The notes under the pieces are model-generated. The model did no database searches and was not told the origin of the DNA. It saw only the letters and a list, made by a program, of their open reading frames with translations. Made by a program: the position numbers and the translations under genes. 64,000 bases of DNA from Candidatus Oxydemutatoraceae bacterium (GTDB taxonomy: Bacteria > Pseudomonadota > Gammaproteobacteria > Poriferisulfidales > Oxydemutatoraceae), in the NCBI GenBank assembly GCA_965220085.1, contig CBDCOZ010000003.1, positions 448,001 through 512,000 on the forward strand. The letters run 5' to 3'. Of this stretch, positions 1,740 through 64,000 are shown piece by piece. The stretch's first letter is position 1. Each line of letters begins with the position of its first letter.

Positions 1740-1843
1740 ATATGCAAACTAATTCTATGGATTATTAGCATTTGCTATAATAACAGACATACTTAACCGA
1801 CTGATTCTTTAACCCCTTGGGTGCAAGGAAAGCGGGAAAAATT

Positions 1844-7034: not shown

Positions 7035-7039
7035 GGACG

Positions 7040-9438: not shown

Positions 9439-9447
9439 AAACCGACC

Positions 9448-10914: not shown

Positions 10915-10930
10915 GGGATGGCTTTCGCCG

Positions 10931-12130: not shown

Positions 12131-12142
12131 CGGGAGACAAAG

Positions 12143-12544: not shown

Positions 12545-12554
12545 GCACAGCGGG

Positions 12555-14269: not shown

Positions 14270-14271
14270 AC

Positions 14272-15591: not shown

Positions 15592-15594
15592 AAA

Positions 15595-17246: not shown

Positions 17247-17255
17247 GGCGGCGGG

Positions 17256-22137: not shown

Positions 22138-22204
22138 GGAAAATACTATGAAATCAATCATGAATTTTTTACCAGACAAATCAAAATTAGTAGGAGTAAA
22201 TACT

Positions 22205-25200: not shown

Positions 25201-26257
25201 GTCAGGCCCGGGTGCCCCCTGTGATTTGCTGGCGCTACCCGGCGCTACCGATGCATGTTCAAGCCTCCACGAGATGACGATAAGCACCTCGACAGAAGTC
25301 ACGGTGATGGCTATGCTGACGGGACGAAACGTTGAGTTGACAATAGATGCCAGCGCGCATGCTATTGGCGATATTGTTTCCCTTGGGCTTGACCTGAGAC
25401 ATGCCGGAAGCACCGAGTTCGTTCTGCCCCTCAACCTCGTAGTGGTGAATGACGCGGACGCGGAGATATTGGGAGGCGCCGACGCTAATGGCAACGGTAT
25501 CCCGGATGCGCAAGACATGGCGAGCGCTTACATTCTGCCTCTGAGCTCCATGGCCCTCTATGCTGCGCCGACCGACCGGTACAGCCTGTCGGCGAGAGTC
25601 GGTTATCGGACGCTTAGTCGCTTGGCAAGCCGCGTGGAAGGCGCTGACATGTTGGAAGCGCGTAACTTCCGCATGGGTGATCTCCCCGGTGTGTTTGGTT
25701 CCAATGATGCGGACATAATAGCTCTGCACTTTGCGAACTACAATGTCATGAGCGATGTCGTGGATGGCAATTATGTCGCCGGAAGAGTCGGCTTGGTGTT
25801 CTCACTGAACGGAGTGAGCGCTCTTACGGATGTCCCGGTGCGCTTTGAGAAGTACAGCGGGCGGACATTTGAACCCGTAGAAGGCAGCGATGCCGAATAC
25901 GGCACATTCAATAGTCAGGGTACCGTTGTCGGTACTGATGACTGTCCGGAGGATAACGGCTATGCCTCTTCGCCGTATCGTGACGCTGAGGGCAACCTCA
26001 TGACCGGTCGCGGTGATTGCATGGTTGTCTACATCACTGACGGCGGACAGTACGATGAAGATGGGCAGCGCAACGGGGTCGTAGTTGACCCGGGTCGTGC
26101 TGCTATCGGCGCCGCGCCTGAGGCTCCTCAGCCTACTGTCACCACCGGCGGTGGCGGCGGTGGCGGTGGCGCTATCGCTTTGAACGAAGTAATAGGCTTA
26201 CTTGCTCTGTTGGGACTGGTGGCCTACGGCATACGTCGGCAGCGTAGATACGAATAA
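22205..26257 (+). CDS. Large secreted surface protein: possible cohesin-like N-domain, Ig-like repeats, choice-of-anchor U-like domain, GlyGly-CTERM
   Basis: Signal peptide (VLYA|Q); beta-rich acidic body; ITDGGQYDEDGQRNGVVVDPG; C-terminus GGGGGGGG-AIALNEVIGLLALLGLVAYG-IRRQRR (Gly-rich, TM, basic). Alternative in-frame start at 22148. Confidence 0.85.
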   Translation: MKSIMKRTFIGLFSLSIIGFGNVLYAQDADPAYEEGFYVGGNPTDATCSGCEEAEIRFSNATVSGESFSFDVDMKPEATVGLASFGVRVQLNTDAINRAECAVSNARPPAAGSDITAVADTIADDRFNVILSRLPQVLGFGPSTSLSDFIVVNANVWNRMFTMTCPITDNTMPAEIAFHSGLWKEAARINLTPTLGAGETRSITIALRATNALLDAPLFEVPFMVGYTLDEWVGEPSATSPTVTVYDTLKYTVNFSGSIVSGPDEIMYDLEAVRRDGSVIAAGTTRGGGAAAASTATATATTETAVAQGSPSVVVLLDSIMGTGTTASATILTDAGTATGVIIRESIPVTSGTAAGDSGPITGVVLPDDVTEALTVTEVEANGTYTVELNKGVIINFDSEENADNPIDYYRIAMYTGSSVVLNATAISDDMYAYTLPDEDRIPVQDEWAATFSDVTAIPISRLGDDRFHVIVNFGAPVSAIDTAAGEIAMSVMSNGGTITGASVVPGSLRLGFPTGVNLNTNPTELMAVEAEANVVSFMVDPTGTLDQGESALGNEVFTATLPSGLITVEGTSEFDPLEFEAIENGAPEIRAFMVSTQSKVYTIGANDARTLGDIIYTATFTEPVGAIAGQLRAALTTTAKLHPLSEDRIIAGIAGLTAGASVTDGTIAFGEALNQRPTVSVSGNEATLTFSNVEISSDVNSLVAVIEAGSPVFGLVEDCESLTGWYTAPDGSPRRNARTDACVAQEAADAPTGDVVSAEPAPVEGAGTGAPTDPHRVSRVAGLYVGTLAERMEHFRWTVSAGVATVEPQNANGDPFPLRDQMRSVPFQVQWRIADARGFSLRGMEATALQYYQFLEEVEFRDRLTVVPDGETAATVIVERTTRTDAVAVPVALVDPVSDDASFAAGFAPGANQGPVEIPFADATQLIYRISTSSTVWRMGEPLTSLATAVYAAGIVDQARAARLNAGQTPPAVVTGVSQGFLQVQAGNTVTVTYENGMSGPGAPCDLLALPGATDACSSLHEMTISTSTEVTVMAMLTGRNVELTIDASAHAIGDIVSLGLDLRHAGSTEFVLPLNLVVVNDADAEILGGADANGNGIPDAQDMASAYILPLSSMALYAAPTDRYSLSARVGYRTLSRLASRVEGADMLEARNFRMGDLPGVFGSNDADIIALHFANYNVMSDVVDGNYVAGRVGLVFSLNGVSALTDVPVRFEKYSGRTFEPVEGSDAEYGTFNSQGTVVGTDDCPEDNGYASSPYRDAEGNLMTGRGDCMVVYITDGGQYDEDGQRNGVVVDPGRAAIGAAPEAPQPTVTTGGGGGGGGAIALNEVIGLLALLGLVAYGIRRQRRYE

Positions 26258-26291
26258 TAATAAACTGTCATTAGCTTTTAGCTATACCTAT

Positions 26292-26326
26292 AAAGGCACA
26301 CTCCGAATGGGGTGTGCCTTTTTTTT
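26292..26326 (+). terminator. Rho-independent terminator
   Basis: AAAGGCACACTCC-GAAT-GGGGTGTGCCTTT hairpin followed by a T-tract. Confidence 0.85.
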
Positions 26327-26371
26327 ATGGGAATTATGTGCCCGAACAGATAAATGAGATTGCCGCTTCTT

Positions 26372-26700
26372 GAGCAGCAGCAGGTCCTTAATTGTCGCTT
26401 GGCCGGCTTCTTATTCTCATATATTGCCCCTGTCGGCAGCTTGCTTAGCAGCGCATCTTTTGCCGCTTCGGCGAACGCCTTGAGGGATATTTTCTTGTGC
26501 CCCCTAAAGACGGCTTGTTTTCGCTTAGATTGCCGCTTTTTGAGCGAGTAGCGGGTTCTTAATTGTCGCTTGTCGGCCTCTTATTCTCATGCATTGACCC
26601 TGTCGGCGGCTTCTCTGGCAGCACATCTTTTGCCGCTTCGGCGAATGCCTCAAGAGATATTCTCTTATGGTCACCCTTATAAAGACGGTTTATTTTCGCT
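26372..26700. repeat. Degenerate direct duplication, about 170 bp x2
   Basis: ttaattgtcgcttg..ttattctcat..catcttttgccgcttcggcgaa..aagacgg..ttttcgctt occurs at ~26388-26526 and ~26559-26701. Confidence 0.7.
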
Positions 26701-26929
26701 TGGTGAGTCTCTTGTATGACAGCCGCTTGCCACCGTGCTTTTGGCTGACGCTTTCATGCGATCCGTTATGAATCCGGTCGATAACCCGCAAATCTTTATA
26801 TTCCAATGTTTTCGGGATTGCCTGTGTATTCGGTATATAATTCCTTTTTTATAGGGGGCGCGGCATTTGATGCCGTTACCAACCCTATGTATTCGGTATA
26901 TAATTCCTTTTTTATAGAGTGATTCAATT

Positions 26930-27607
26930 TTGCAAATGAGACATTACACCACAGCCGACACCTGCCATATCGTTTACGATGTTTTTCCAGTGATATTGGC
27001 ATTGGCATCGCTGGTTCTTGTGTGCACATCGCACAGCGATAAATTTCTGTATGACAGAGAGTTGCTCATGGAAGGGGAGTTATGGCGATTGATTACCGGT
27101 CATCTCAGCCACCTTACAGCCGGGCACGGGGTCCTCAATCTATGCGGCTTGGCGATTCTTATGATAGCGGGATATGGCATGGTCGGGCTGGGGATAGGTG
27201 TGCAACTGATTTGCTTGCTGTGCTTCGCTTTGCTGATATCGACGGCCTTTTATTTCTCCCTCCCCGACCTGCAATATTATGGCGGCCTGTCGGGCGCCTT
27301 GCACGGGCTTTATGCCCTCATTGCGGTCGTATATGGGTGTCCCCCCATAGGCGCTGTTGCCAATACCGGAAAATCGCTGTCTATGCCCCAAAAAGCGGCT
27401 TTTTTTACCCCGACTGCTATCGGCGGCATAATGTTGCTCGCGATGGCGGCTAAAGTCGTCTACGAGGTCTTTTTTGACCAGAATCGCTCAATAGATGGCA
27501 TACCTGTCCTCGTCGAATCGCACACAATTGGCGCACTGGCGGGCATCGGCGTATCGTTTGTGCTGATTCTTTTAATCCTTGAAGGCAAAGTAAAGCTGCT
27601 ACGCTAG
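26930..27607 (+). CDS. rrtA: Rhombosortase (GlyGly-CTERM-processing rhomboid protease)
   Basis: GELWRLITGHLSH..H..LN, catalytic Y.GLSGALHG, and SHTIGALAG His motif; adjacent to a GlyGly-CTERM gene. Start uncertain. Confidence 0.88.
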   Translation: MQMRHYTTADTCHIVYDVFPVILALASLVLVCTSHSDKFLYDRELLMEGELWRLITGHLSHLTAGHGVLNLCGLAILMIAGYGMVGLGIGVQLICLLCFALLISTAFYFSLPDLQYYGGLSGALHGLYALIAVVYGCPPIGAVANTGKSLSMPQKAAFFTPTAIGGIMLLAMAAKVVYEVFFDQNRSIDGIPVLVESHTIGALAGIGVSFVLILLILEGKVKLLR

Positions 27608-50890: not shown

Positions 50891-52132
50891 CTACCGCAGA
50901 GGCCCCTCAAGAAAGACGCGCAACCGCAAGAACAAGTTCGTCTGGCGAACGCATTCCGTCGCGCCATTCGTATTCGCCCTCGCCGGACTCATGCCCGCCC
51001 CGCAGTTGAAAACATACGGCTTCCTCTGCGGAATCATGTCAAATGTCGTCCTGACTAGTTCGTTAAGTTTATCGTTATTCGACGCATCGGTCAGCGAAAA
51101 GGGAATCCCGTTGTCCCGAAACACCTCTATCAAAAGATGTTCGCCGCCAATCGCGACGTTCAAACTGCCGCTGTGACTGATGGCCCCGTCAATGTAGCCA
51201 TCCTCGCGGCGGTATCGCCCCAAAACCGCATTCGCATAAGCCGCCGCCGCAGGGCCAAGGGTGGCGGGGTGCAGATCCTCTATGTCCCGAAAGCCGGCAA
51301 CAAGACCTTGCACCAGCGGCGACAGAGCCGCCGGAAACGCATATTCCGCTCCGAACACCTCATCGCACAACGGCGCGCCCCCGCTAAAAAAGCAACCGTC
51401 ATGACTCATCCCATCCGTTCCGCCCGAAGTCAGCGGGATTTCGCATTTGATCGGGGAAGTAGTGGTGGAAGCAGTCCACCCTTGGCTCAGGCATGCGCTA
51501 ACCGCCTCCCGCTGGGCGCGGTTCAAATCCGGCGCGGCAACGCAGTCCGGCCATGCGCCGATGTGCGAGTCCAAATCGCAGGAGCATTCATACTCGCCGT
51601 CTATGTTTTTGTCGGGCGGATAGCCGCCGGGGGCGGCCCCATCGCGGTCGCAGTTTGCCACAAAACGATCTTTGACAAGGACTCCGCCGACGACTCTGAC
51701 ACTGGGATGTTCCGCCGCTTTCGGGAAAACCGGCGGGTCGCCAAACATGGTCACGCAAGACGGCTCATAGGCGGTGTCGTCTCTGCGGCGGATCCAGCAA
51801 TATGTTGCGCCTACTATGCCGACGCTGTTGTATACTCTGGAGGGAATTTCGCAGACTATCCACGGGATTGAGGGCGTTGTTGTGGGAGCGTTGCTTCCTT
51901 CCTACCCCGCGCGCTCACAATCCTCCATAATCGCCACCGAGTCATCGGGAATGCAACCGGACTCATCGGGAGCGAGACCGCCAAATGATTTCGTCACGTA
52001 CGTCTGTCCTGCGGGGCATGGTTCGGTTTGCGCCGACGCGTTGTTCGCGGCAAATGCGCAAGCGAGGATTATCGCCGCGCAAATCCCGCAAATTTTAAGG
52101 GCGGCGGCAGTATTAATAATTTGTCGTTTCAT
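50891..52132 (-). pseudogene. Class A Cys-rich secreted protein with LRLRVFLEGPLR C-terminus, interrupted by one in-frame TAG
   Basis: GGAGA RBS + MKRQIIN; TAG at 51902-51904 replaces the Trp of the conserved AGW; the frame continues to the tag. Confidence 0.8.
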
Positions 52133-52185
52133 AGCATTTCTCCATATGGTTTGTATCTCGCGAATATAGTTGCGCAATAAGTCGC

Positions 52186-52392
52186 GCCATAAACAATCCG
52201 CAACAACTCAAAAAGCCACAAACAATTGATCGAGGACACACAAACAGTTGATGGAGCACAAACAATATAAGAAACCACAAACAACTGAGTGTTGTTTGTG
52301 CTCGTATATCGTTTGTGCCTCATTAAATTGTTGTTTGTGCTCTCATTACCGTGCCTCATTAAGTGTTGTTTGTGCCTCATTAAACGTTGTTT
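52186..52392. repeat. CACAAACAA/TTGTTTGTG composite element upstream of a class A gene
   Basis: Direct CACAAAC boxes, central palindrome CACAAACAAC-TGAGT-GTTGTTTGTG, then inverted boxes. Confidence 0.8.
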
Positions 52393-52578
52393 GCGCGCAT
52401 ATTCGGGGGACACACGAATCCGAGCATGATCGGACATCCCGCAAGAACACCGCCCGCGCAAGGCATCCCCCGAACCTCGTGCCGGCGCCAAGCGCGCGCT
52501 CCTCGCCGCAGAGGCGCGGAGTCCGGGGCACAGGCGACGTACGATGCGGCGAGGGATGACGACCGGCACCCATGACCA

Positions 52579-53532
52579 TCATCGCAGCGGCCCCTCAAGG
52601 AAAACGCGCAAGCGCAAGAACAAGTTCGTCTGGCGAACGCATTCCGTCGCGTCATTCGTATTCGCCCTCGCCGGAATCATGCCCGCTCCGCAGTTGAAAA
52701 CATACCGAACCGACTCCTCCTCTTCCGGAAAGGCGTAGTCTTCTCCGAACACCTCCTCGCACAGCGGCGCGCCCCCGCTAAAAAAGCAACCGTCATGATT
52801 CATATTCGTCTCGCCCGAAGTCAGCGGGATTTCGCATTTGATCGGGGAGGTGGTGGTGGAAATAGTCCACCCTTGGCTCAGGCATGCGCTAACCGCCTCC
52901 CGCTGGGCGCGGTTCAAATCCGGCGCGGCAACGCAGTTCGGCCAGTCGCCGAAGTGCGAACCCGGATCGCAGGAGCATTCGGTTTCGCCGTTGAGGTTGT
53001 GGGCCGGCGGATAGCCGCCGGGGACTTCCCCGTCGCGGTCGCAGTTTGCGACAAAGGAACCCGGACTGGCGCTGAACCCGTCGGTTTCAAGGTTGGGGTG
53101 GTCCTCCGCCCTCGGAAAAACCGGCGGGTCGCCAAACATGGTCGCGCAAGACGGCTCCGGGACGGAGGCGTCGCGGATAATCCAGCAGTAGGGGGACGCA
53201 GAACTGCCTGTTGCGCTATAGACATCGACGGGAGTGCCGCAGATCAGCGACGGTACCGAGGGGGCTGATGCGAAAGCGCTGAGTGTTGCCCACCCCGCCT
53301 TTTCACAATCACTCACAATCTTCGCCAGATTATCGGCAACGCAACCGGTATCTCCTCCCCCCGGTTTCGTCAATCGCGTTTGCCCGTCGGAGCATGGGGT
53401 TTGCGCCTGCGCCTGACCGCAGACGGCGCACATGGCGAGCAAAACCGGCAACCAAAGGCTCCGCCGCGTCATCGCCGCGCAAATCCCGCAAATGTTAAGG
53501 GCGGCGGCGGTATTAATAATTTGTCGTTTCAT
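52579..53532 (-). CDS. Class A Cys-rich secreted protein (no helical insert), LRLRVFLEGPLR C-terminus
   Basis: MKRQIIN start, signal ending AQAQ, two related Cys modules, terminal tag. Confidence 0.85.
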   Translation of the reverse strand: MKRQIINTAAALNICGICAAMTRRSLWLPVLLAMCAVCGQAQAQTPCSDGQTRLTKPGGGDTGCVADNLAKIVSDCEKAGWATLSAFASAPSVPSLICGTPVDVYSATGSSASPYCWIIRDASVPEPSCATMFGDPPVFPRAEDHPNLETDGFSASPGSFVANCDRDGEVPGGYPPAHNLNGETECSCDPGSHFGDWPNCVAAPDLNRAQREAVSACLSQGWTISTTTSPIKCEIPLTSGETNMNHDGCFFSGGAPLCEEVFGEDYAFPEEEESVRYVFNCGAGMIPARANTNDATECVRQTNLFLRLRVFLEGPLR

Positions 53533-53585
53533 AGTATTTCTCCATATGGTTTGTATCTCGCGAATGCGGTTGCGCAATGAGTCGC

Positions 53586-53792
53586 GCCATAAACAATCCG
53601 CAACAACTCAAAAAGCCACAAACAATTGATCGAGGACACACAAACAGTTGATGGAGCACAAACAATATAAGAAACCACAAACAACTGAGTGTTGTTTGTG
53701 CTCGTATATCGTTTGTGCCTCATTAAGTGTTGTTTGTGCTCTCATTACCGTGCCTCATTAAGTGTTGTTTGTGCCTCATTAAACGTTGTTTG
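53586..53792. repeat. CACAAACAA/TTGTTTGTG composite element
   Basis: Near-identical to 52186-52392. Confidence 0.8.
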
Positions 53793-53979
53793 CGCACATA
53801 TTCGGGGGACACACGAATCCGAGCACAATCGGACATCCCGCAAGAACACCGACCGCGCAAGACATTCCCCGAACCTTGTGCCGACGCCTGTCGCGCGCTC
53901 CCCTCGCCGGCGAGGCGCCGAATCCGGGGCACAGGCGACAGACGATGCGGCGAGGGATGACGACCGGTATCCGTGACTA

Positions 53980-55284
53980 TCATCGCAACGGCCCCTCCAG
54001 AAAGACGCGCAACCGCAACAGCAGGGCCGGATCCGAATCTGGTTCCTGCTGTGCGAGAACGCATTCCGTCGCGCCATTCGTATTCGCCCCCGCCGGAGAC
54101 ATGCCCTCGCCGCAGTTAAAAACATACGGATCAATCTGCGGAATCATGTCAAACGCCGCGGTAACCAACCCGGGCAATGCCGCAAGACGCGCCGCATGAT
54201 CTATCCCGCTTGCGGAAAAATCAAAAGGAATCCCATGGTCTGTGGAGAACACTTTCTCCAGCACCGAAACGGCAATGGTTCTGTTATTATCGTCGGAGTT
54301 GGCCTCTATGTTGGCAAGCGGGCCGGCAAGATAGTTCGTGTCGCGGATGTATCGCGCCAGAACCGCATCCCGATAAACTCCCGCCGCGGTTTTGATATGC
54401 GCGGAATTCCCGGAGAGGTCGGCAATGGCCTTAAAGCCGTTGAAAAGCATCTCCGCCAATCCCGAAAGCATTCTGGCGGGAAAGGCGTATTCTTCTCCGA
54501 ACACCTCCTCGCACAGCGGCGTGTCCGTGCCCGTGCTCGCGATAACAAAGCAGCCGTCATAATCCGTATCTGTCTCGACCGAAGTCAGCGGGATTTCGCA
54601 TTTGACGGCGGCGGTGGCAGTGGAAATATTCCACCCTTGGCTCGGGCATGCGCGAACCGCCTCCCGCTGGGCGCGGGTCAAATCCGGCGCGGCAACGCAG
54701 TCCGGCCATGCGCCGATGTGCGAGTCCAAATCGCAGGAACATTCGTATTCGCCGTTGAGGTTGTGGTCCGGCGGATAGCCGCCGGGGACGGTCCCATCGA
54801 GGTCGCAGTTTGCGGCAAAGATAATTGGGCCGGCGGTGACCCCGTCGGTTTCAACATTGGGGTGGTCCGATGCTTTTGGAAACCTCGGCGGGACGCCAAA
54901 CATGTCCGCGCAAGAAGGATCGCTGGCGGCAGTGCCGCGGAGAATCCAGCAAAATGTTGCGGTGGCTCTGTTGTGTAGGTTGGAGGGAATGCCGCAGACC
55001 ACCCACGGGCTTGAGGGCGCTGTTGTGGGAGCATCGAGTCCTAACCAGCCCGCTTTCTCACAATCCTCCATAATCGCCAGCGCGTCATCGGGAACGCAAC
55101 CGGGTTCATCGGGAACGGGATCCCCCCATACTTTCGTCAATAGCGTTTGCCCTTCGGGGCATGTGGTTTGCGCCTGCGCTGATGCGCTGTTCGCGGCGAA
55201 CGCGCAAGTCAATACGAGCATCATCGCCGCGCAAATCCCGCGCGTTTTAAGGGCGGCGGCAGTATTAATAATTTGTCGTTTCAT
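53980..55284 (-). CDS. Class A Cys-rich secreted protein, LRLRVFLEGPLR C-terminus
   Basis: MKRQIIN start at 55284; signal ASAQ; distinct linker (QQEPDSDPAL) before the same tag. Confidence 0.85.
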   Translation of the reverse strand: MKRQIINTAAALKTRGICAAMMLVLTCAFAANSASAQAQTTCPEGQTLLTKVWGDPVPDEPGCVPDDALAIMEDCEKAGWLGLDAPTTAPSSPWVVCGIPSNLHNRATATFCWILRGTAASDPSCADMFGVPPRFPKASDHPNVETDGVTAGPIIFAANCDLDGTVPGGYPPDHNLNGEYECSCDLDSHIGAWPDCVAAPDLTRAQREAVRACPSQGWNISTATAAVKCEIPLTSVETDTDYDGCFVIASTGTDTPLCEEVFGEEYAFPARMLSGLAEMLFNGFKAIADLSGNSAHIKTAAGVYRDAVLARYIRDTNYLAGPLANIEANSDDNNRTIAVSVLEKVFSTDHGIPFDFSASGIDHAARLAALPGLVTAAFDMIPQIDPYVFNCGEGMSPAGANTNGATECVLAQQEPDSDPALLLRLRVFLEGPLR

Positions 55285-55539
55285 AGCATTTCTCCATATG
55301 GTTTGTATCTCGTGAATATAGTTGCGCAATAAGTCGCGCCATAAACAATCCGCAAACAGTTCTAGGGGACACATGAATCCGGGCATAATCGGACATCCCG
55401 CAGGAAGACCGCCCGCGCAAGGCATCCCCCGAACCTCGTGCCGGCGCCAAGCGCGCGCTCCCCTTGCCGCAGAGGCGCGGAGTCCGGGGCACAGGCGACG
55501 TACGATGCGGCGAGGGATGGCGACCGGCACCCATGACCA

Positions 55540-56790
55540 TCATCGCAACGGCCCCTCCAGAAAGACGCGCAAGCGCAAGAACAAGTTCGTCTGGCGAACG
55601 CATTCCGTCGCGCCATTCGTATTCGCCCTCGCCGGAATCATGCCCGCCCCGCAGTTGAAAACATACGGCTCCCGAACCGGAATCTCCTCAAACGCCGCCC
55701 TGATAGCCTCCATAAGTTTCGCATCGGTGTTCGCCTCGCCCGGCGAAAAGGGAATCCCGTTGTCCTGAAACACTTCCGCCAAAAGAAATTTGCCGCCAAT
55801 CGCGGTGCGCAAACTGCCGCGGTGACTGATGGCCCCGTCAATGTAGTTTGATTCGCCGCGGTATCGCCCCAAAACCGCATCCGCATAAGCCGCCGCCGCA
55901 GCGCCATAAGTGTCGGTTTGCAGATCCCCTACGTTCCGAAAGCCGTCAACAAGACCTTGCGCCAGCGGCGACAGAGCCGCCGGAAAGGCGTATTCCGCTC
56001 CGAACACCTCATCGCACAACGGCGTACCCCCGCTAAAAAAGCAACCGTCATGACTCATCCCATCCGTTCCGCCCGAAGTCAGCGGGATTTCGCATTTGAT
56101 CGGGGAAGTAGTGGTGGAAACAGTCCACCCTTGGCTCAGGCATGCGCTAACCGCCTCCCGCTGGGCGCGGTTCAAATCCGGCGCGGCAACGCAGTCCGGC
56201 CATGCGCCGATGTGCGAGTCCAAATCGCAGGAGCATTCATACTCGCCGTCTATGTTTTTGTCGGGCGGATAGCCGCCGGGGACCGCGCCGTTGCGGTCGC
56301 AGTTTGCGACAAAGACATTCGGACTGGTGCTGACCCCGTCGGTCTGAACATTGGGATGGTCCGCCGTCCTCGGAAACACCGGCGGGTCGCCAAACATGTT
56401 CACGCAAGACGGCTCCCGGATGGAAGCGCCGCGGAGAATCCAGCAAGATGTCGCGCCTGTAAAGCCTGTTTCGTTAAAGAGTTGGGAGGGAAGGCCGCAG
56501 ACCACCCACTTCAATGAGGGCGTTGTTGTGCCGGCGTTGAGTCCTAACCATCCCGCCTCCTCACAATCCTCCATAATCGCCACCGCGTCATCGGGAACGC
56601 AACCGGTATCGGAAACGCCGCCGCCAAATGATTTCGAGAGTCGCGTTTCCCCTTCGTTGGGGCATGGTTCGGTTTGCGCCGACGCGTTGTTCGCGGCGAA
56701 AGCGCAAGCGCACATCATCGTCGCGCAGATCCCATAAATTTTAAGGGGGGCGGCGGTATTAATAATTTGTCGTTTCATAGTTCGTTTCAT
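55540..56790 (-). CDS. Class A Cys-rich secreted protein, LRLRVFLEGPLR C-terminus
   Basis: MKRTMKRQIIN start with GGAGA RBS; conserved Cys scaffold; tag. Confidence 0.85.
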   Translation of the reverse strand: MKRTMKRQIINTAAPLKIYGICATMMCACAFAANNASAQTEPCPNEGETRLSKSFGGGVSDTGCVPDDAVAIMEDCEEAGWLGLNAGTTTPSLKWVVCGLPSQLFNETGFTGATSCWILRGASIREPSCVNMFGDPPVFPRTADHPNVQTDGVSTSPNVFVANCDRNGAVPGGYPPDKNIDGEYECSCDLDSHIGAWPDCVAAPDLNRAQREAVSACLSQGWTVSTTTSPIKCEIPLTSGGTDGMSHDGCFFSGGTPLCDEVFGAEYAFPAALSPLAQGLVDGFRNVGDLQTDTYGAAAAAYADAVLGRYRGESNYIDGAISHRGSLRTAIGGKFLLAEVFQDNGIPFSPGEANTDAKLMEAIRAAFEEIPVREPYVFNCGAGMIPARANTNGATECVRQTNLFLRLRVFLEGPLR

Positions 56791-56842
56791 AGTATTTCTC
56801 CGATGGTTTGTATCTCGCGAATGCGGTTGCGCAATGAGTCGC

Positions 56843-56932
56843 GCCATAAACGATTCGCAAACAATTGATGGAGCACAAACAACCGAGTGTTGTTTGTGCT
56901 CTTATTACCGCGCCTCATTAAAATGTTGTTTG
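56843..56932. repeat. Short CACAAACAA/TTGTTTGTG element
   Basis: GCACAAACAACCGAGTGTTGTTTGTGC core plus one flanking box on each side. Confidence 0.7.
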
Positions 56933-57115
56933 CGCGGATTCCAAGGGGCAAACGAATCCGAGCGTCATCGGATCTCCCGCGCGAAGACTGACCGCGCAAG
57001 CCATCCCCTAATCCTCGCGCCGGCGCCAAGCGCGCGCGCCCCTCGCGAGAGAGGCGCGGAGTCCGAGCCGCGGGCGACGAACGATGCGAAGGATGGCGAG
57101 CGGTATCCATTGCCG

Positions 57116-58381
57116 TCATCGCAGCGGGCCCTCCAGAAAGACGCGCAGCCGCAAGAACAAGTTCGTCTGGCGAACGCATTCCGTCGCGCCATTCGTATTC
57201 GCGCTCGCCGGAGCCATGCCCGGCCCGCAGTTGAAAACATACGGCTCAATCTGCGGAATCATGTCAAACGTCGCCCGGATGAGCGCGATAAGACTCTCAT
57301 TGTCGTCCGTCGCGTCGGCCAGCGAAAAGGGAATCCCGTTGGCCCGGAATACTTCTATCAAAACGAATCCGCCGTTGACGAACTCGGCTTTCAATTGTCT
57401 TCGGTGATCGCCGATGGCTCCGTTAATATAGCCATCCTCGCGGCGGTAGCGCCCCAAAACCGCGTCCGCATAAGCCGCCGCCGCCGCGGCAATGGCGCCG
57501 GCGCGCAGAGTATCTATGAGCCGAAAGCCGTCGACAAGACCTTGCACCTGCGGCGGCAGAGAATCCGGAAAGGCATATTCCGCTCCGAACGCATCGGCGC
57601 ACAACGGCGCGCCCCCGCTAAAAAAGCAACCGGGATACTTCGTCCCGTCGCCCGAAATCAGCGGAATCTCGCATTGGATAGGGGAGGTGGTGGTGGAAAT
57701 AGTCCACCCCTGATTCGTGCATGCGCGAACCGCCTCCCGCTGGGCGCGGGTCAGAGTCGGCGCGGCAACGCAGTCCGGCCATTCGCCGATGTGCGAGTTC
57801 AAATCGCAGGAACATTCGGTTGCGCCGCCTATGTTGTGGGTCGGCGGATAGCCGCCGGGGACGGCCCCATCACGATTGCAGTTTGCCACAAAGGCCCCCG
57901 GACTAGGGGTGCTCCCGTCGGTGTTGAGATTGGGGTGGTCCGCCGCTTTCGGAAAAACCGGCGGGTTGCCATACATGTTCGCGCAATTCAGCAGACGGAA
58001 AGAGTCGCCGCGGATAATCCAGCAGAAGGGAGATGCCTCACTGCCTGTTTCGGTATAGAGTTGGGAGGGAATGCCGCAGGTCACAAACTGTGCATTGGGT
58101 TCTGTTGTGGTAGTGTCGAGTCCCGCCCACCCTGCTTTCTCGCAATCCCTCATAATCGCCACCGCGTCATTAGGAACGCAACCGGTATCATCGGGAACGC
58201 CAAAGCCAATTTCTTTCGTCAATCGCGTTTGCCCTGCGGGGCATTCGGCTTGCGTTTGCGCCGATGCGCTGTTCGCGGCGAATGCGCAAGCGAGCATCAT
58301 CGCCGCGCAGATTGCATAGAGGCGCGGAGCCCGAGCCACGGGCGACGGGCGATGCGAAGGATGACGACCGATACCCATCAT
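57116..58381 (-). CDS. Class A Cys-rich secreted protein, LRLRVFLEGPLR C-terminus
   Basis: ATG overlaps the upstream stop; signal CAAMMLACAFAANSASAQ; conserved scaffold; tag. Confidence 0.83.
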   Translation of the reverse strand: MMGIGRHPSHRPSPVARAPRLYAICAAMMLACAFAANSASAQTQAECPAGQTRLTKEIGFGVPDDTGCVPNDAVAIMRDCEKAGWAGLDTTTTEPNAQFVTCGIPSQLYTETGSEASPFCWIIRGDSFRLLNCANMYGNPPVFPKAADHPNLNTDGSTPSPGAFVANCNRDGAVPGGYPPTHNIGGATECSCDLNSHIGEWPDCVAAPTLTRAQREAVRACTNQGWTISTTTSPIQCEIPLISGDGTKYPGCFFSGGAPLCADAFGAEYAFPDSLPPQVQGLVDGFRLIDTLRAGAIAAAAAAYADAVLGRYRREDGYINGAIGDHRRQLKAEFVNGGFVLIEVFRANGIPFSLADATDDNESLIALIRATFDMIPQIEPYVFNCGPGMAPASANTNGATECVRQTNLFLRLRVFLEGPLR

Positions 58382-60030
58382 CGCAGCGGTCCCTCCAGAA
58401 AGACGCGCAACCGCAACCGCAGGCTGTCTCCCAAGTCTATGCGCATCGTGGCGGCGGCGCTGCTCTCTATGCCATCGCTGACGGTGAATCGAAACGAGGC
58501 ATAGTTTTGCGCAGGCTCGGTGCCATCGGCATCTTGATAGTAGGTGAGCGTGGGGATGTCGGACACATCCACTACGTTGTTTTGGCCCGAGCCGGATGTC
58601 ACCAGCGCGTCGCCGTCTATCAACAGTGTGCCTTTGTTCGGCGCGCCGGTAATCGTGATGCTTGCCAGAGCGCCGCCGTCCGCATCGGCAAAGCGGAAGT
58701 CGCTCGCCTTAAACGCATAGGGAGCCGCTGCGGTGGTTGAAGTAGACACGAGCACCGTGCTGGGCAAAGCCCTCGGCGCGGCATTGATGCGCACCGAGGC
58801 GCCGCAGAGCGGGCCCTCGCGTCTCGGGGTGGCGTGGTGGTCCATAAAGGCGGCGCAGGCGCGTATGTGCCTGCCCGCCCGGGCCTGGGCCTGGGTCAGG
58901 ACGAAGGCGGCGGCGGTGGCGCCCGCTATGTTGGCAAAGCCGCCGGAGGCGCTGGCGGATTGTTGCCACTGCCAGGTCAATGTGCTCTCGTCTATGCCGT
59001 TGGGCTCCGCTATGCCATGGATGCGGGCCCGCAATTCGCTGCCCTCGGCGTAGACGGAGGCCAAGACAACATTGGGTACGCTTACCTGGGGCCCGCCGGC
59101 GGCGGCGGCCTGTTCCGCTTGCGCCAGACGGATGCGGGCGAAGCCGCTTCTGGCGCTGGTCTTGTCGGCGGCGGGGTCGCCGCCCGGGCCGTCGCCATCG
59201 TCCGTCACCAGGAATCCGAACCTGCCATAGACGACCTCCAAATCGTCGACGGGGGACGGTTGCTGTCCCGATGCCGGCCAGTAAGCGAGGGCGCCGGCCT
59301 CCAGTTGCGCCGCTGTGACGGTCGTGGGGACGGTGGCGGAGGTCAGGGCGTTGCCACTCAGGGTCAGGGTGCCCGCGCTCATGCCCAGACTGTCTATGGG
59401 CAGGTTTCTCACCATGATGGCGGCCAGACTGTCGTCATCGTCATCGTCGAATGTAAAGTCTTGCGGGCGGAACTTATAGGGGGCGCTTTCGTTGGCGCCG
59501 ACGGACACTGAGATTCTGGAGTCCACCACCACCGGCGCATCGTTGGTGTTGGCGACCGGCTCGGTGGTGAGGCAGAGATTTTCCCGGTTGCCGTCGTCAT
59601 CGTCGAACATGGCGCAGACGCGGATGCGACTGCCCACATGCTCCTGGCGGGGAGTCCAGGTGGCATCGGTGTTGTCTTCTATGATGGCGAAGTTCCCGTC
59701 GCCCTGGTTGTCGTGACTCCATTGCCAACTTATGGTCGATCCGAGATTGTCGACGCCATCGGGGTCTTCTATGTCCAGAGCGCGCAATGTCACGGTGCTG
59801 TCCTCAGGCGGCGCGCCGGTCAGTTCGGTCCCGAGAGAGACGAGCCTCAGCACGCCGGTGGCGTTCTGCGCCTGCGCCTGGGCGCACAGCGCAAGCAGCG
59901 CGAACAAGGCCGGCAGGATGAGCGGGCGGAGGCTGCGCGCCATCGTTGCCCGTCGGCGCAGGGCGAGCGCTCGGAAGCCGCGCCTGCCGAATGCGGCGCG
60001 GCGGCGGGAAATTAAACTTGTCGTTTTCAT
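58378..60030 (-). CDS. Class B secreted Ig/cadherin-like repeat protein, LRLRVFLEGPLR C-terminus
   Basis: GGAGA RBS; Arg-rich n-region plus signal AQAQ; WQW..VG..IR.C modules alternate with NDAP..F.F.D.D.D.L..GTL modules; tag. Confidence 0.85.
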   Translation of the reverse strand: MKTTSLISRRRAAFGRRGFRALALRRRATMARSLRPLILPALFALLALCAQAQAQNATGVLRLVSLGTELTGAPPEDSTVTLRALDIEDPDGVDNLGSTISWQWSHDNQGDGNFAIIEDNTDATWTPRQEHVGSRIRVCAMFDDDDGNRENLCLTTEPVANTNDAPVVVDSRISVSVGANESAPYKFRPQDFTFDDDDDDSLAAIMVRNLPIDSLGMSAGTLTLSGNALTSATVPTTVTAAQLEAGALAYWPASGQQPSPVDDLEVVYGRFGFLVTDDGDGPGGDPAADKTSARSGFARIRLAQAEQAAAAGGPQVSVPNVVLASVYAEGSELRARIHGIAEPNGIDESTLTWQWQQSASASGGFANIAGATAAAFVLTQAQARAGRHIRACAAFMDHHATPRREGPLCGASVRINAAPRALPSTVLVSTSTTAAAPYAFKASDFRFADADGGALASITITGAPNKGTLLIDGDALVTSGSGQNNVVDVSDIPTLTYYQDADGTEPAQNYASFRFTVSDGIESSAAATMRIDLGDSLRLRLRVFLEGPLR

Positions 60031-60041
60031 GGCATTTTCTC

Positions 60042-60416
60042 CTATGACAGTCTGTGCGCGGTCGGCGGCCATTCCGCCATAAGCGCGAATCGTTTTGCAA
60101 GCGCCTTGGGCGCTTGTCTTGCGGGCGGCGGCGCAAGTCGCGCCGGCTTGAGTCCTGACCATCCCTTGTCCTCGCAATCCCTCAGAATCTTTAGCGCGTC
60201 ATCGGCTACGCAACCGGTATCGGAAACGCCAAAGCCAAAGACTTTCGTCAATCGCGTTTGCCCTGCGGGGCATTCGGCTTGCGTTTGCGCCGACGCGCTG
60301 TTCGCGGCGAATGCGCAAGCGAGCATCATCGCCGCGCAGATTGCACAGAGGCGCGGAGCCCGAGCCACGGGCGACGGACGATGCGAAGGATGGCGAGCGG
60401 TATCCATTGCTGTCAT
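60042..60416 (-). pseudogene. Truncated 5' fragment of a class A gene
   Basis: Signal peptide + CPAGQTRLTK..GC..DCEDKGW, then unrelated sequence; no tag. Confidence 0.7.
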
Positions 60417-62101
60417 CGCAACGGCCCCTCCAGAAAGACGCGCAAGCGCAACCGCAGGCTGTCCCCCAAGTCTATGCGCATCGTGGCGGCGGCGCTGCTC
60501 TCTATGCCATCGCTGACGGTGAATCGAAACGAGGCATAGTTTTGCGCAGGCTCGGTGCCATCGGCATCCTGATAATAGGTGATCGCGGAGATGTCGGACA
60601 CATCCACTGCGTTGTTTTGGCCCGAGCCGGATGTCACCAGCGCGTCGCCGTCTATCAACAGTGTGCCTTTGTTCGGCGCGTTGATGATAGTGACGCTTGC
60701 CAGGGCGCTGCCGTCCGCGCCGCTGCCGATGTCCGCATCGGCAAAGCGGAAGTCGCTCGCCTGAAACACATAGGGCGCCGCTGCGGTGGTCGAAGTGGAT
60801 ACGAGCACCGCGCTGTCCATGGCCCTCGGCGCGCTATTGATGCGCACCGAAGGGCTGCAGATGGGCCCCTCCGGATTCGAGAGGGCATCCATAAAGGCGG
60901 CGCAGAGGCGGATGTACATGCCCGTCTGGGCCTGGGTCAGGGTGAAGTTGTCATCGGTCGCGCCCGCTATGTCGGCAAAGGGGCCCTCGGCGCTGGCGGA
61001 CAGTTGCCATCGCCAGGCCAGGGTGCTGGTGTCTACGCCGTTGTCGTCGTTCAGTGTGTTCTGGCTGGCGAGCAGCCGGGTGCCCTGGCGGGGTTGCCGG
61101 ACGGTGACAAACTGGGTGCCGTGCTGGTTCACTATGGCCTCCCTTATTTGGGGCATGCCGATGGCGGGGGCCTGCACTGAGGATACCAGACGGATTTGCA
61201 TGCCTCTCGACCGGGCGCCGATTTTGTCGGCGTTGACATCGCCGGCCGGGCCGTCGCCATCGTCCGTAACATTGAAGAAGAAGGATGCATAGTGGGCAGT
61301 GGAGTCCGCGGGGTCGGTGGGTTGCTGGCCCGTCGGCGGGTGCCAGGTAAGGGCGCGGGCCCGCAGTTGGGCCGCTGTTACGGTCGTGGGGACGGTGCTG
61401 CTGGTCAGGGTCACGCCATTCAGGATCATGGTTCCGACAGTGCGCTGGTTGGCGCCGGGGGTCAGGGGCAGGCTGCGCACGACCGCGCTTTCCAGCATGT
61501 CGTTATCATCGTCGTCAAACGTGAAGTCCTGCGGGCGGAATGCGTAGGGGGCGCTGGCATCGGCGGCGACGCTGACCGCGACAAAGTTGCGCTTGGGCGC
61601 CGGCGCATCGTTGGTGTTGGCGACCGGCTCGGTGGTGAGGCAGAGATTTTCCCGGTTGCCGTCGTCATCGTCGAACATGGCGCAGACGCGGATGCGACTG
61701 CCCACATGCTCCTGGCGGGGAGCCCAGGAGGCCTCAGTTCTGTCTATGATGTTGTCAAATACCCCGTCGCCCTGGTTGTCGTGACTCCATTGCCAACTTA
61801 TGGTCAAGCCGATATTGTCGATGCCATCGGGATCCTCTATGTCAAAACTGCGCAATGCTATGGTTCTGTCCTCAGGCGGCGCGCCGGTCAGTTCGGCGTT
61901 GCCAGGGGGGAACGTCAGCGCGCCGGTGGCGTTCTGCGCCTGCGCTTGTGCGCACAGCGCAAACAGCGCGAGCAAGGCCGGCAGGATGAGCGAGCGGAGG
62001 CTGCGCACCATCGTTGCCCGTCGGCGCAGGGCGAGCGCTCGGAAGCCGCGCCTGCCGAATGCGGCGCGGCGGCGCAAGGGAATCAAAGTTTGTCGTTTCA
62101 T
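60413..62101 (-). CDS. Class B secreted Ig/cadherin-like repeat protein, LRLRVFLEGPLR C-terminus
   Basis: Paralogue of 58378-60030; start MKRQTLIP. Confidence 0.85.
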   Translation of the reverse strand: MKRQTLIPLRRRAAFGRRGFRALALRRRATMVRSLRSLILPALLALFALCAQAQAQNATGALTFPPGNAELTGAPPEDRTIALRSFDIEDPDGIDNIGLTISWQWSHDNQGDGVFDNIIDRTEASWAPRQEHVGSRIRVCAMFDDDDGNRENLCLTTEPVANTNDAPAPKRNFVAVSVAADASAPYAFRPQDFTFDDDDNDMLESAVVRSLPLTPGANQRTVGTMILNGVTLTSSTVPTTVTAAQLRARALTWHPPTGQQPTDPADSTAHYASFFFNVTDDGDGPAGDVNADKIGARSRGMQIRLVSSVQAPAIGMPQIREAIVNQHGTQFVTVRQPRQGTRLLASQNTLNDDNGVDTSTLAWRWQLSASAEGPFADIAGATDDNFTLTQAQTGMYIRLCAAFMDALSNPEGPICSPSVRINSAPRAMDSAVLVSTSTTAAAPYVFQASDFRFADADIGSGADGSALASVTIINAPNKGTLLIDGDALVTSGSGQNNAVDVSDISAITYYQDADGTEPAQNYASFRFTVSDGIESSAAATMRIDLGDSLRLRLRVFLEGPLR

Positions 62102-62112
62102 GGCATTTTCTT

Positions 62113-62475
62113 CTATGACAGTCTGTGCGCGGTCGGCGGCCGTTCCGCCATCAGCGCGAATCGTTTTGCAAGCGCCTTGGGCGCTTGTCTTGCGGGCGGC
62201 GGCGCAAGTCGCGCCGGCTTGAGTCCTGACCATCCCTTGTCCTCGCAATTCCTCAGAATCTTTAGCGCGTCATCGGCTACGCAACCGGTATCGGAAACGC
62301 CAAAGCCAATGACTTTCGTCAATCGCGTTTCTCCTTCGGGGCATTCGGTTTGCGCCGACGCATGGTTCGCGGCAAATGCGCAAGCGAGCATCATTGCCGC
62401 GCAGATTGCACAGAGGCGCGGAGTCCGAACCACGGGCGACGGGCGATGCGAGGGATGACGTGTGTTTCCTATCAT
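62113..62475 (-). pseudogene. Truncated 5' fragment of a class A gene
   Basis: Same breakpoint as 60042-60416. Confidence 0.7.
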
Positions 62476-64000
62476 CGCAGCGGCCCCTCCAGGAAGACGC
62501 GCAACCGCAACCGCAGGCTGTCTCCCAAGTCTATGCGCATCGTGGCGGCGGCGCTGCTCTCTATGCCATCGCTGACGGTGAATCGGAATTGGGCATAGTT
62601 TTGCGCAGGCTCGGTGCCATCGGCATCCTGATAGTAGGTGAGCGTGGGGATGTCGGACACATCCACTACGTTGTTTTGGCCCGAGCCGGATGTCACCAGC
62701 GCGTCGCCGTCTATCAACAGTGTGCCTTTGTTCGGCGCGTTGATGATCGTGACGCTTGCCAGAGCGCTGCCGGTCGCGCCGCTGCCGCCGTCCGCATCGG
62801 CAAAGCGGAAGTCGCTCGCCTTAAATGCATAGGGCGCCGCTGCGGTGGCTGAGGTAGACACGAGCACCGTGCTGGGCAAAGCCCTCGGCGCGGCATTGAT
62901 GCGCACCGAAGGGCCGCAGAGCGGGCCCTCCCGCGCCGGGCTTGTGGGGTGTTGGTCCATAAAACTGACGCAGGCGCGGATGTGCCTGCCCGCCCGGGCC
63001 TGGGCCTGGGTCAGGGTGAAGGCGGCCTCATCACCGCCCTCGGCGGTCGCGCCCGCTATGTTGACAAAGCCGCGGTCGGCGCTGGCGGATTGTTGCCATT
63101 GCCAGATCAATGTGCTCTCGTCTATGCCGTTGCGCTCGACTATGCCGTGGACGCGGGCCAGCAGTTCGCTGCCCTCGGGGTAGGCGGCGGCCGCGGCAAC
63201 ATTGGCCACTATTATCTGGGGCCCGCCGGTGGCGGCAGCCTGTTGCGTCTGCACCAGGCGGATGCGGATGGAGCCGTTGGCGGCGCTGGTCTTGTCGGCG
63301 TTGACATCGCCGCCCGGGCCGTCGCCATCGTCCGTCACATGGAAGCTGAACCTGACATATGTAGCCTCCAGCTCGTTGATGTCGGTGGGTTGCTGGCCCG
63401 ATGCCGGCCAGTATGTCAGGGCGCCGGCCTGCAGCTGCGCCCTTGTTATGGCCTCTGCGGGGGCGGCGGTCAGGGCGGTGCCATCCAGGGCCATGGTGCC
63501 CGCGCTCATGCCCGAGCCGGGCAGCACTCCTATCAATGTGACGCTTTCCAGGCCGTCGCCATCGTCATCGGCGAACGCAAAGTCCTGCGGGCGGAACCTA
63601 TAGGGAGCGCTTTCGCTGGCGCCGACGGACACCGAGATTCTAGGAGTCAGACCCACCGGCGCATCGTTTACGTTTATGACCGGCAAGGTGTCGGCGCATG
63701 CATTTTCCCTGGAGCCGCGGTCATCGGTGAAACTGAGGCAGCCGCGGATGCGACTGCCCACATGCTCCTGGGCGGGAGACCATGCGGCATCATGATTGTC
63801 TATGATGTTGGCGAAGTTCCCGTCGCCCTTGTTGTCGTGGCTCCATGCATAGCTCGCGGTCAGGCCAGATCTGGAGGAGCCATCTGGGTCTTCCAGACGC
63901 GAGTCAGCCAGGAGCAGGCTCCTGCCCTCCTCTGGCGCGCCTGTCAGGGGGATGAAACCTGGCACTGTCAGTCTGATGGTGGCCGGGTCATTGACATTGG
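62472..64000 (-). CDS. Class B Ig/cadherin-like repeat protein, LRLRVFLEGPLR C-terminus (5' end beyond window)
   Basis: Frame open to the window edge; same modules and tag as the other class B genes. Confidence 0.85.
   Translation of the reverse strand, partial: NVNDPATIRLTVPGFIPLTGAPEEGRSLLLADSRLEDPDGSSRSGLTASYAWSHDNKGDGNFANIIDNHDAAWSPAQEHVGSRIRGCLSFTDDRGSRENACADTLPVINVNDAPVGLTPRISVSVGASESAPYRFRPQDFAFADDDGDGLESVTLIGVLPGSGMSAGTMALDGTALTAAPAEAITRAQLQAGALTYWPASGQQPTDINELEATYVRFSFHVTDDGDGPGGDVNADKTSAANGSIRIRLVQTQQAAATGGPQIIVANVAAAAAYPEGSELLARVHGIVERNGIDESTLIWQWQQSASADRGFVNIAGATAEGGDEAAFTLTQAQARAGRHIRACVSFMDQHPTSPAREGPLCGPSVRINAAPRALPSTVLVSTSATAAAPYAFKASDFRFADADGGSGATGSALASVTIINAPNKGTLLIDGDALVTSGSGQNNVVDVSDIPTLTYYQDADGTEPAQNYAQFRFTVSDGIESSAAATMRIDLGDSLRLRLRVFLEGPLR

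Follow-up and report, generated by a model that had tools for sequence, protein, structure and literature searches.

Otherwise unrelated exported proteins can share a small C-terminal domain that serves as a tripartite sorting signal, and the sorting systems listed in one account of such signals all share a membrane helix (10.1101/2023.06.07.544157). Small C-terminal sorting domains have previously led to the sortases, exosortases, rhombosortases and myxosortases. In V. cholerae, surface localisation of the protease VesB needs a GlyGly-CTERM signal, rhombosortase and the secretion system of type II (T2SS), as described in PMC6219818. The N-terminal extensions of Pap pilins are described in PMC1868955 as disordered arrays of 11-33 residues with alternating hydrophobics and one strictly conserved register Gly. 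Here we describe a peptide tag, LRLRVFLEGPLR in its local form, that ends proteins of two unrelated classes in a 64,000-nt stretch of DNA (the window) from contig CBDCOZ010000003.1 of a Candidatus Oxydemutatoraceae bacterium, a member of a family within the Gammaproteobacteria. The tag matches no described sorting signal; small terminal sorting tags as such are already known.

In the ORF listing of the window, LRLRVFLEGPLR-stop terminates eight minus-strand open reading frames (ORFs) within 50891-64000. Five encode Cys-rich proteins (class A) and three encode Ig/cadherin-like proteins (class B) with weak Big_9 or cadherin-like matches. Compared by BLASTP with the tails removed, class A (57155-58381) and class B (58417-60177) show nothing significant (best E = 1.8). 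The linkers before the tag also differ, being QTNLF in four genes, DSDPALL in one and IDLGDS in three. Four codon sets encode the E-G-P of the eight tails (GAGGGGCCG, GAGGGGCCT, GAGGGCCCG and GAGGGACCG), seven genes stop with TGA and one with TAG, and the tails show a synonymous difference (pS) of 0.31 at a non-synonymous difference (pN) of 0. An earlier note, made from the letters of the window, had reported the two classes with one identical end, the differing linkers and the purely synonymous codon variation with its varying stops, all of which were seen again here. Its further statement that the amino acids never change stands for the window and fails genome-wide, where position -8 varies between L, I and V (positions are numbered from the C-terminus, -1 being the last residue and -14 the first). 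The array consists of tandem duplicates, and the DNA downstream of the tag stops is conserved as well; for these reasons the window alone would be compatible with a by-product of duplication.

The genome that holds the window (G000; about 2.5 Mb, three contigs, 99% completeness) places the array in a much larger set. Its 33,995 stop-to-stop ORFs (minimum length 40 aa) include 197 with [LIV]FLEGPLR at the C-terminus, and there are five internal copies. Tagged ORFs occur on all three contigs with unrelated flanks and total 163,116 codons, or 19.6% of the genome length, a sum taken stop to stop that overestimates true coding length. They include giants of 15,193, 14,215, 13,255, 9,777, 6,024, 4,989, 4,110 and 4,009 residues. 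The logo of the 197 tails reads [L123/I48/V14], R151, L191, R196, L197 from -14 to -10, and R197, [L136/I35/V26], F, L, E and G (each 197/197), P196, L197, R197 from -9 to -1. The strictly invariant core is R-x-F-L-E-G-P-L-R. Immediately upstream of -14 the information content drops to about 0.2 bit.

The constancy of the tag lies in the peptide and not in the DNA. Positions 1 and 2 of the tag codons do not change, whereas variation is seen at every third position and at the first position of Leu codons, and the 197 tags comprise 168 distinct 36-nt DNA versions of the same peptide. Over all pairs of tails pS is 0.505 and pN is 0.030, falling to 0.011 without codon -8; some of the all-pairs pN arises artificially from Leu codon paths of several steps. 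The neutral sites of the tag are thus about half-saturated, and invariance at non-synonymous sites against this background requires selection. Chance origin is excluded, because the back-translated pattern matches the genome 218 times and a reversed control not at all. We conclude with high confidence that this is a functional tag acting at the level of the protein. The earlier note had named, as findings that would count against it, a motif that varies freely or is confined to the array. The codon-level comparison, the 168 DNA versions, the spread over three contigs, and the copies, described below, that are carried by 11 of the 18 sister genomes and by 13 foreign proteins all speak the other way.

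We compared 19 genomes of the family (G000 and its 18 sisters, G001-G018, in six genera) with 34 genomes from the three sister families of the order and with 399 genomes outside the family, evenly sampled across the class. The pattern R-x-F-L-E-G-P-L-[RQ]-stop occurs twice each in G011 and G012, once in G015, and three times each in G017 and G002. It occurs in none of the 34 genomes of the sister families, and none of the 399 genomes outside the family matches the tag pattern. A looser pattern finds 33 copies in G009, nine in G004, two in G013 and one in G003. The loosest pattern finds eight in G003 (IRIRVFLEGALQ and relatives) and one in G005 (RVRVFLQGALQ), and no match in G001, G006, G010, G014, G008, G016 and G018. 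The tail of G007, ...IRLRIKLFLEGPLQ, was detected only through the reading of a homolog. A version of the tag is therefore present in 12 of the 19 genomes (G000, G002, G003, G004, G005, G007, G009, G011, G012, G013, G015 and G017) and in five of the six genera. Tagged sister genomes range from 44 to 63% G+C, and their tags differ in codons throughout, with tails such as ...VRVRVRVFLEGPLQ, ...IRIRTRVFLEGPLQ and similar. Eight tagged ORFs fetched from sister genomes all exceed 3,100 residues.

Each genome keeps one version of the tag, and the versions are specific to the genus: FLEGPL[RQ], FLEGALQ, FLQGALQ or FLGGM[VI]R, the last of these as LRL[RK][VA]FLGGM[VI]R-stop at the ends of giant proteins in another genus. 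A version that is constant within a genome and variable between genera is what would be expected from co-evolution with a protein partner. G009 (C1:276262-431791 and 2440214-2573345) and G004 have undergone an expansion of their own, with 33 and nine tandemly arrayed giants, about 3,100-3,600 residues long, all of which have an N-terminal VesB-like protease domain and the tail variant FLGGM[VI]R.

The tag was also sought in public data. A tail-only profile run against 1.84 billion protein representatives gave 67 matches at E <= 1e-3. All but one of these (66/67) lie at the extreme C-terminus; 59 are from G000 itself and eight are foreign. A word-indexed search added five more foreign proteins, for a total of 13 from metagenomes. 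These foreign carriers have FN3, cadherin-like or Calx-beta domains and end in ...RVFLEGPL[QR], one of them with an extra E. Two of them are assigned by NCBI to a 'Candidatus Oxydemutatoraceae' metagenome-assembled genome (MAG). A back-translated pattern, too narrow in that it allowed only V at -8 and an R end, found four stretches in public genome contigs, all of them out-of-frame chance matches. A scan of public metagenome contigs with a back-translated pattern gave a single chance match.

NCBIfam holds no CTERM or C-terminal domain (CTD) model that matches the eight full proteins (E <= 1) or three 45-residue tails (E <= 10), and a literature string search on the motif gave no match. In the 197-copy logo there is just one Gly, and a hydrophobic helix, a Gly/Ser run and a terminal aromatic are all missing; the tag contains neither an LPXTG nor a PEP motif. 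Its last residue is R in every copy of G000 and Q, R or N in relatives. The defining features of LPXTG, PEP-CTERM, GlyGly-CTERM and the β-signal of the β-barrel assembly machinery are all absent from the logo, as the earlier note had argued. The LPXTG/sortase, PEP-CTERM/exosortase and MYXO-CTERM/myxosortase pairs likewise use a small C-terminal domain common to unrelated exported proteins, but the tag lacks a transmembrane segment, and neither sortase (PF04203) nor exosortase (PF09721) was found in G000, in searches that matched 3/14 and 1/14 control genomes, respectively. GlyGly-CTERM is a closer parallel: it too is short, C-terminal and borne by surface proteins that Gammaproteobacteria export through Sec. 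It coexists with the tag in the window, and the same VesB-like protease family carries either signal. Unlike it, the tag has no Gly/Ser-rich motif, hydrophobic helix or terminal basic cluster, spans 12-14 residues instead of about 25-35, and also occurs near the N-terminus; nor does the presence of rhombosortase track the tag.

The N-terminal extensions that act as donor strands in chaperone-usher pili share with the tag their disorder, alternating hydrophobics, one conserved Gly and a length of 11-33 residues, and either protein end may carry the peptide. The tag differs in standing at the C-terminus of diverse and often giant proteins and in the strongly basic character of its other face; no chaperone, usher or pilin-like acceptor was identified, and the likeness is one of pattern. 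The type IX CTD is also Sec-dependent, restricted to one lineage and shared by scores of unrelated surface proteins, giant adhesins included, but it is a folded β-sandwich of 70-100 residues found in Bacteroidota, whereas the tag is a linear peptide of a gammaproteobacterial family and matches no CTD model. Dockerins are like the tag in that a single small module closes many of the proteins that a genome secretes, and docking without a covalent bond would be common to both. Dockerins, however, are folded Ca-binding modules of about 70 residues; here giant proteins are tagged too, and no cohesin-like acceptor was found. The β-signal of outer-membrane proteins is an amphipathic terminal β-strand with alternating hydrophobics. 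It ends in an aromatic residue and not in R, Q or N, and its cargo is barrels, whereas the tagged cargo consists of soluble multi-domain fibres; there is a single Omp85 protein per genome. A search for ShlB-type TpsB (PF03865) matched 0/19 family genomes and 0/14 control genomes and is therefore uninformative. Finally, the tagged giants and most other carriers have Sec-type signal peptides, which sets them apart from type I secretion substrates.

The relation to GlyGly-CTERM is most direct in the VesB-like, trypsin-like proteases, which occur in 11 of the 19 family genomes without tracking the tag. We use GlyGly-CTERM-like as a label given by eye, for a Gly run followed by a hydrophobic helix and a basic cluster, because the curated GlyGly-CTERM model matched none of the ends examined. 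Short forms of the protease in G001, G005, G012 and G017 have a GlyGly-CTERM-like end; long forms in G007 and G011, and the giants in G004 and G009, carry the tag at that end. Two paralogs in G000 are 73% identical. One has an ordinary signal peptide and a GlyGly-CTERM-like end. The other ends at the very point at which that signal would start, and directly after its signal peptide it carries NPMTVPQDVLT[IV]AQA, a short linker, LRLRLRVFLEGPLR and GGS. The same N-terminal tag module is found in two PPC-repeat proteins, for three N-terminal copies in total. Its position in the swapped paralog shows that a free C-terminus is not strictly needed. Homologous cargo on which one sorting signal has taken the place of another is the classic mark of alternative anchors. 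The model of the N-tagged protease has a mean confidence score (pLDDT) of 57, with residues 1-104 below 50. In the class A protein A5 (mean pLDDT 71) the tag residues 408-421 fall below 50 and have no secondary structure. Neither model shows the tag docked in cis.

The proteins that bear the tag are extracytoplasmic. Only 29 of 105 gene-called tagged proteins have Pfam matches (E <= 1e-5), the other 76 having none; the families are He_PIG, Big_9, cadherin types, PPC, subtilase with Calx-beta, and one stray SLOG match. Class A has no Pfam or NCBIfam match with 17 paralogs aligned, and the A5 model has no fold match in the PDB (Foldseek, best E = 0.65). A crude signal-peptide rule applied to the first 120 residues of ORFs of at least 300 aa selects 142 of 160 tagged and 412 of 1295 untagged ORFs, an unspecific rule that shows enrichment only. 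Pro-rich or acidic linkers precede the tag. Single-linkage clustering on the last 150 residues placed 185 proteins in eight clusters (157, 21, 2 and five singletons), a method that merges almost all tagged proteins because their modules are mosaic. These comparisons point to an expansion of the tag largely by duplication and module shuffling, and they place at least eight unrelated C-terminal contexts in front of it.

The giants have a clear Sec signal peptide followed by an acidic, Ca-binding-like module. Mature giants (e.g. C3:1344695-1384462, 1400132-1429465 and 1442649-1488230) start with this dockerin/EF-hand-like module, and under a strict pattern (D-x-D-x-D-D-G-L-I-E-I ... L-E-Q-L-N-A-x-R) at least 60 copies lie in 10 ORFs at a spacing of about 460-480 residues. 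It is a conceivable acceptor for the basic tag. A second motif, N-A-T-G-x-P-x-V-T ... P-T/N-E-D-S, marks the mature start after a signal-peptide end ...AQAQAQ in 37 of the 197 tagged proteins, namely B1 (near 59860-59940), B2 and 35 other tagged genes; of the 4080 untagged ORFs with a length of at least 150 aa, only four have this motif.

We think it probable that the tag is a sorting or retention signal. This is the sense in which the earlier note had read it, as a sorting or docking signal, and the GlyGly-CTERM swap, together with the absence of free variation, of confinement to the array and of a match to a described signal, argues for that reading. In G000 the tag has the form [LIV]-R-L-R-L-R-[LIV]-F-L-E-G-P-L-R-COOH, and across the family it has the form hydrophobic-R-hydrophobic-[RK]-hydrophobic-F-L-x-G-x-hydrophobic-[RQN]-COOH. 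The cargo, which consists of adhesin-like or eukaryote-like modules (Ig, cadherin, FN3, Calx-beta, PPC, proteases) and giant fibres, is synthesised with Sec signal peptides. Once a protein has been exported by Sec and, probably, by type II secretion, the tag would retain it at the cell surface or direct it there. Carried on a flexible linker and disordered alone, the tag would do so by docking, as one amphipathic β-strand, into a protein receptor that evolves along with it, much in the way that a donor strand makes a neighbour's fold complete. The hydrophobic face of the strand would consist of -14, -12, -10, -8 and -6, a Gly at -4 that sets the register, and -2; the other face would be R, R, R, F, x, x and [RQN]. 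The ancestral use may have been in one to three giant adhesins per genome, where the tag would hold the base of the fibre on the cell, and G000 would have extended it to about 190 smaller proteins, giving about 200 genes in all. We favour this reading as a whole, a family-specific sorting or anchoring tag in the form of a disordered, amphipathic, donor-strand-like peptide, but only tentatively, at a little under an even chance. The non-covalent docking of a strand, which is suggested by the sequence pattern, we hold a shade more doubtfully still.

Several observations weigh against this reading. Seven of the 19 family genomes have no match, though the patterns can miss variants, as the case of G007 makes clear. 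Envelope components are present irrespective of the tag: secretin in 19/19 genomes, one Omp85 in each of the 19, GspC in 19/19 and rhombosortase in 18/19. Neighbourhood and presence/absence comparison identified no receptor or enzyme for the tag, and the Pfam matches of genes beside tagged genes in contig C1 of G000 and in G011, G012, G015, G017 and G002 are to unrelated housekeeping proteins and transposases. The donor-strand idea is drawn from the pattern of residues. Many copies stem from duplication, since 157 of the 185 clustered proteins join one cluster through shared modules. Part of the uniformity in G000 may also reflect recent spread or shared descent. TAG is the stop of 120 of the 197 tagged genes (61%) and of 271 of 1294 untagged long ORFs (21%), and the six nucleotides past the tagged stops have the consensus CGCGAG, exact in 54/197. 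This bias and this consensus suggest that tag and stop, together with a few bases, spread through this genome as a single unit of DNA.

The main rival of docking is that the tag is the substrate of an enzyme, that is, a rhombosortase-type signal without the membrane helix. An envelope protease, rhomboid-type or other, would cut after the Gly of F-L-x-G-x-hydrophobic-[RQ], and the new C-terminus would be joined to lipid or glycan. The four features that are invariant across the variants, F at -7, L at -6, G at -4 and a hydrophobic at -2, would fall at P4, P3, P1 and P2'. Rhomboids favour a small P1 and those of the GlpG type a bulky hydrophobic P4, and GlpG is able to cleave VesB outside the membrane, according to PMC11389362. 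The tag replaces GlyGly-CTERM on homologous proteases, and the rhombosortase of the window (TIGR03902, 96 bits at a cut-off of 84) is the lowest-scoring and most divergent of the 18 in the family (93.7 bits in that comparison against 115.8-149.3). On the other hand, the tag offers no membrane helix on which a rhomboid substrate could dock, P1' is Pro in most copies, and cleavage of the N-terminal copies would separate the tag from its cargo. Rhombosortase exceeds the cut-off in 18 of the 19 genomes, including four tag-less g2 genomes, and since it is present both with and without the tag, nothing ties the enzyme to it. G000 also retains ordinary GlyGly-CTERM-like substrates, one of them adjoining the rhombosortase gene; this 1369-aa protein has a choice-of-anchor-U match of 30.3 bits, just below the cut-off of 32. 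We regard an enzymatic role as unlikely.

Less likely again is a generic membrane or lipopolysaccharide anchor with no protein partner, in which a cationic amphipathic β-strand would lie in the outer leaflet with Arg on phosphates and Leu in lipid. The strict alternation of Leu and Arg over 8-10 residues with four Arg would suit such a strand, as would the lack of a partner gene by neighbourhood or presence/absence and the fact that the tag works at either protein end. But lipid binding would not require F-L-E-G-P-L to be invariant over 197 copies, it leaves the genus-specific versions and their constancy per genome unexplained, and the last residue can be Gln or Asn in place of Arg.

The T2SS raises a third possibility. 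A complete operon for this system lies in the window, and it is likely the outer-membrane route for Sec-exported tagged cargo. The tag could then be what this system recognises in its cargo, for example as a C-terminal ligand for GspC's PDZ-like domain, and would serve export rather than retention. The end of GspC in the window is indeed weakly PDZ-like, with a loop of the G-L-G type, and matches PDZ below threshold (E = 0.025), and VesB-like proteases are among the tagged proteins. However, GspC with this region is found in all 19 family genomes, tag-less ones included, three tag copies are N-terminal, and PDZ ligands are usually hydrophobic at the last residue. The Vibrio case cuts both ways: the PDZ domain of V. 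cholerae EpsC is required for secretion of VesB, and the PDZ-dependent information lies in an Ig fold and not in a terminal peptide, as PMC12369372 describes it. We consider a T2SS signal improbable.

A host-directed tag, which would bind a component of the sponge matrix or a receptor, or promote uptake, appears equally improbable. The cargo is rich in eukaryote-like adhesion modules, two foreign carriers are assigned to the Oxydemutatoraceae MAG noted above, and a species of this family is listed among dominant sponge symbionts in PMC11685487. Even so, the extreme end of a giant fibre is better suited to anchoring its base than to binding a target, and the swap with GlyGly-CTERM, which retains proteins at the bacterial surface, speaks for the bacterial envelope. 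Least credible of all is a reading without any function of the protein, in which the tag would be either a repeat at the level of DNA (an element for recombination or termination) or an inert leftover of recent duplication. Although post-stop DNA is conserved in the window, the TAG bias and the CGCGAG consensus extend genome-wide and many carriers are paralogous, synonymous sites are about half saturated with the amino acids unchanged, flanks are unrelated, very different DNA encodes the same peptide in genomes of 44-63% G+C, and reading frame and terminal position are always retained.

If the preferred reading of a sorting tag with strand docking is correct, its consequences go beyond the array. 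Since the tag has no membrane helix, it should point to a mechanism different from that of the known helix-bearing signals, and there is a fair chance that the mechanism is of a new kind. A bolder version would be a new surface-display system, in which a helix-less peptide of 12-14 residues plugs hundreds of exported proteins, of up to 15,193 residues, into a putative acceptor on the cell surface or on the giant fibres themselves; we consider this rather unlikely. Were it true, it would be a proteome-scale 'peptide plug' scaffold, with a 2.5-Mb symbiont genome spending a fifth of its DNA on an exchangeable adhesive coat. The tag, on about 200 genes and about 20% of the genome, also marks out what is probably the surface and secreted proteome of a lineage that is uncultured and counts sponge symbionts among its members. 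The natural variants (FLEGPLR, FLEGPLQ, FLEGALQ and FLGGMVR), the GlyGly-CTERM swap and a length that can be synthesised make the question directly testable.

The features of the window discussed above are collected in Table 1.

Table 1. Features of the window. Coordinates are positions in the 64,000-nt stretch; for each tag and each tagged gene the first coordinate is the stop position. Coordinates with the prefix C1 or C3 in the text refer to contigs of a whole genome.
Feature	Position	Strand	Basis
Complete T2SS operon (GspC, D, A, B, E, F, pseudopilins, J, K, L, M)	4100..17246	+	family matches
1369-aa protein with GlyGly-CTERM-like end (22148-26257) and rhombosortase (26930-27607)	22148..27607	+	TIGR03902, cut-off 84
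Tag (12 codons, LRLRVFLEGPLR) and TAG stop, gene A1	50891..50929	-	ORF translation, codon comparison
Tag and TGA stop, A2	52579..52617	-	ORF translation, codon comparison
Tag and TGA stop, A3 (linker DSDPALL)	53980..54018	-	ORF translation, codon comparison
Tag and TGA stop, A4	55540..55578	-	ORF translation, codon comparison
Tag and TGA stop, A5	57116..57154	-	ORF translation, codon comparison
Tag and TGA stop, B1; stop overlaps the ATG of A5 (ATGA)	58378..58416	-	ORF translation
Tag and TGA stop, B2	60413..60451	-	ORF translation, codon comparison
Tag and TGA stop, B3	62472..62510	-	ORF translation, codon comparison
A1, class A, lacking the N-terminal ~135 residues	50891..51754	-	ORF listing
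A2, class A (317 aa), with an internal deletion when compared to A5	52579..53532	-	ORF listing
A3, class A, 434 aa counted from MKRQ	53980..55284	-	ORF listing
A4, class A, 416 aa	55540..56790	-	ORF listing
A5, class A, 421 aa, structure modelled	57116..58381	-	ORF listing, model
B1, class B, Big_9 / cadherin-like, signal peptide end AQAQAQ	58378..60030	-	domain match
B2, class B	60413..62101	-	ORF listing
B3, class B, continues past the window end	62472..64000	-	ORF listing
Class A N-terminal fragment (signal peptide + ~80 aa) behind B2	60042..60416	-	sequence comparison
Second class A N-terminal fragment, behind B3	62113-62475	-	sequence comparison

The genes around the T2SS operon include a protein with TPR and retropepsin-like aspartic protease domains (561-1739, minus strand), upstream of and near gspC, and a Wzy_C (O-antigen-ligase-like) plus TPR membrane protein (1817-4069) directly upstream of gspC. 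The latter gene is upstream of gspC in 14 of 19 family loci, including tag-less g2 ones, and does not track the tag. Within the operon, the GspA-like protein combines AAA and PG-binding domains. A 258-aa ORF with no family match ends the T2SS region, which with this ORF spans 4100-18032 on the plus strand; we take its position to be one often occupied by GspN. Two near-identical coiled-coil proteins of 293 and 297 aa (48566-49447 and 49645-50538, minus strand) lie between secG and the tagged array, both with a C-terminal hydrophobic helix and weak CCDC90-like matches.

Within the array, the signal-peptide piece that A1 lacks is a separate ORF at 51902-52177, and the gene is probably broken. 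Read-through of TGA, which would join A4 and A3 in frame, was considered and rejected, genome-wide stops being mostly TAG or TAA. An integron or a CRISPR-like repeat was likewise rejected, as the spacing and the coding frame are unsuited. About 1.7 kb past the end of the window (C3:513720-514187) are three mini-ORFs in tandem, 50-51 codons long and repeating in units of about 156 bp, each consisting only of the last ~15 class B residues, the tag and the stop; comparable stubs of 43 codons occur at C3:102421-102552 and C3:522006-522137.

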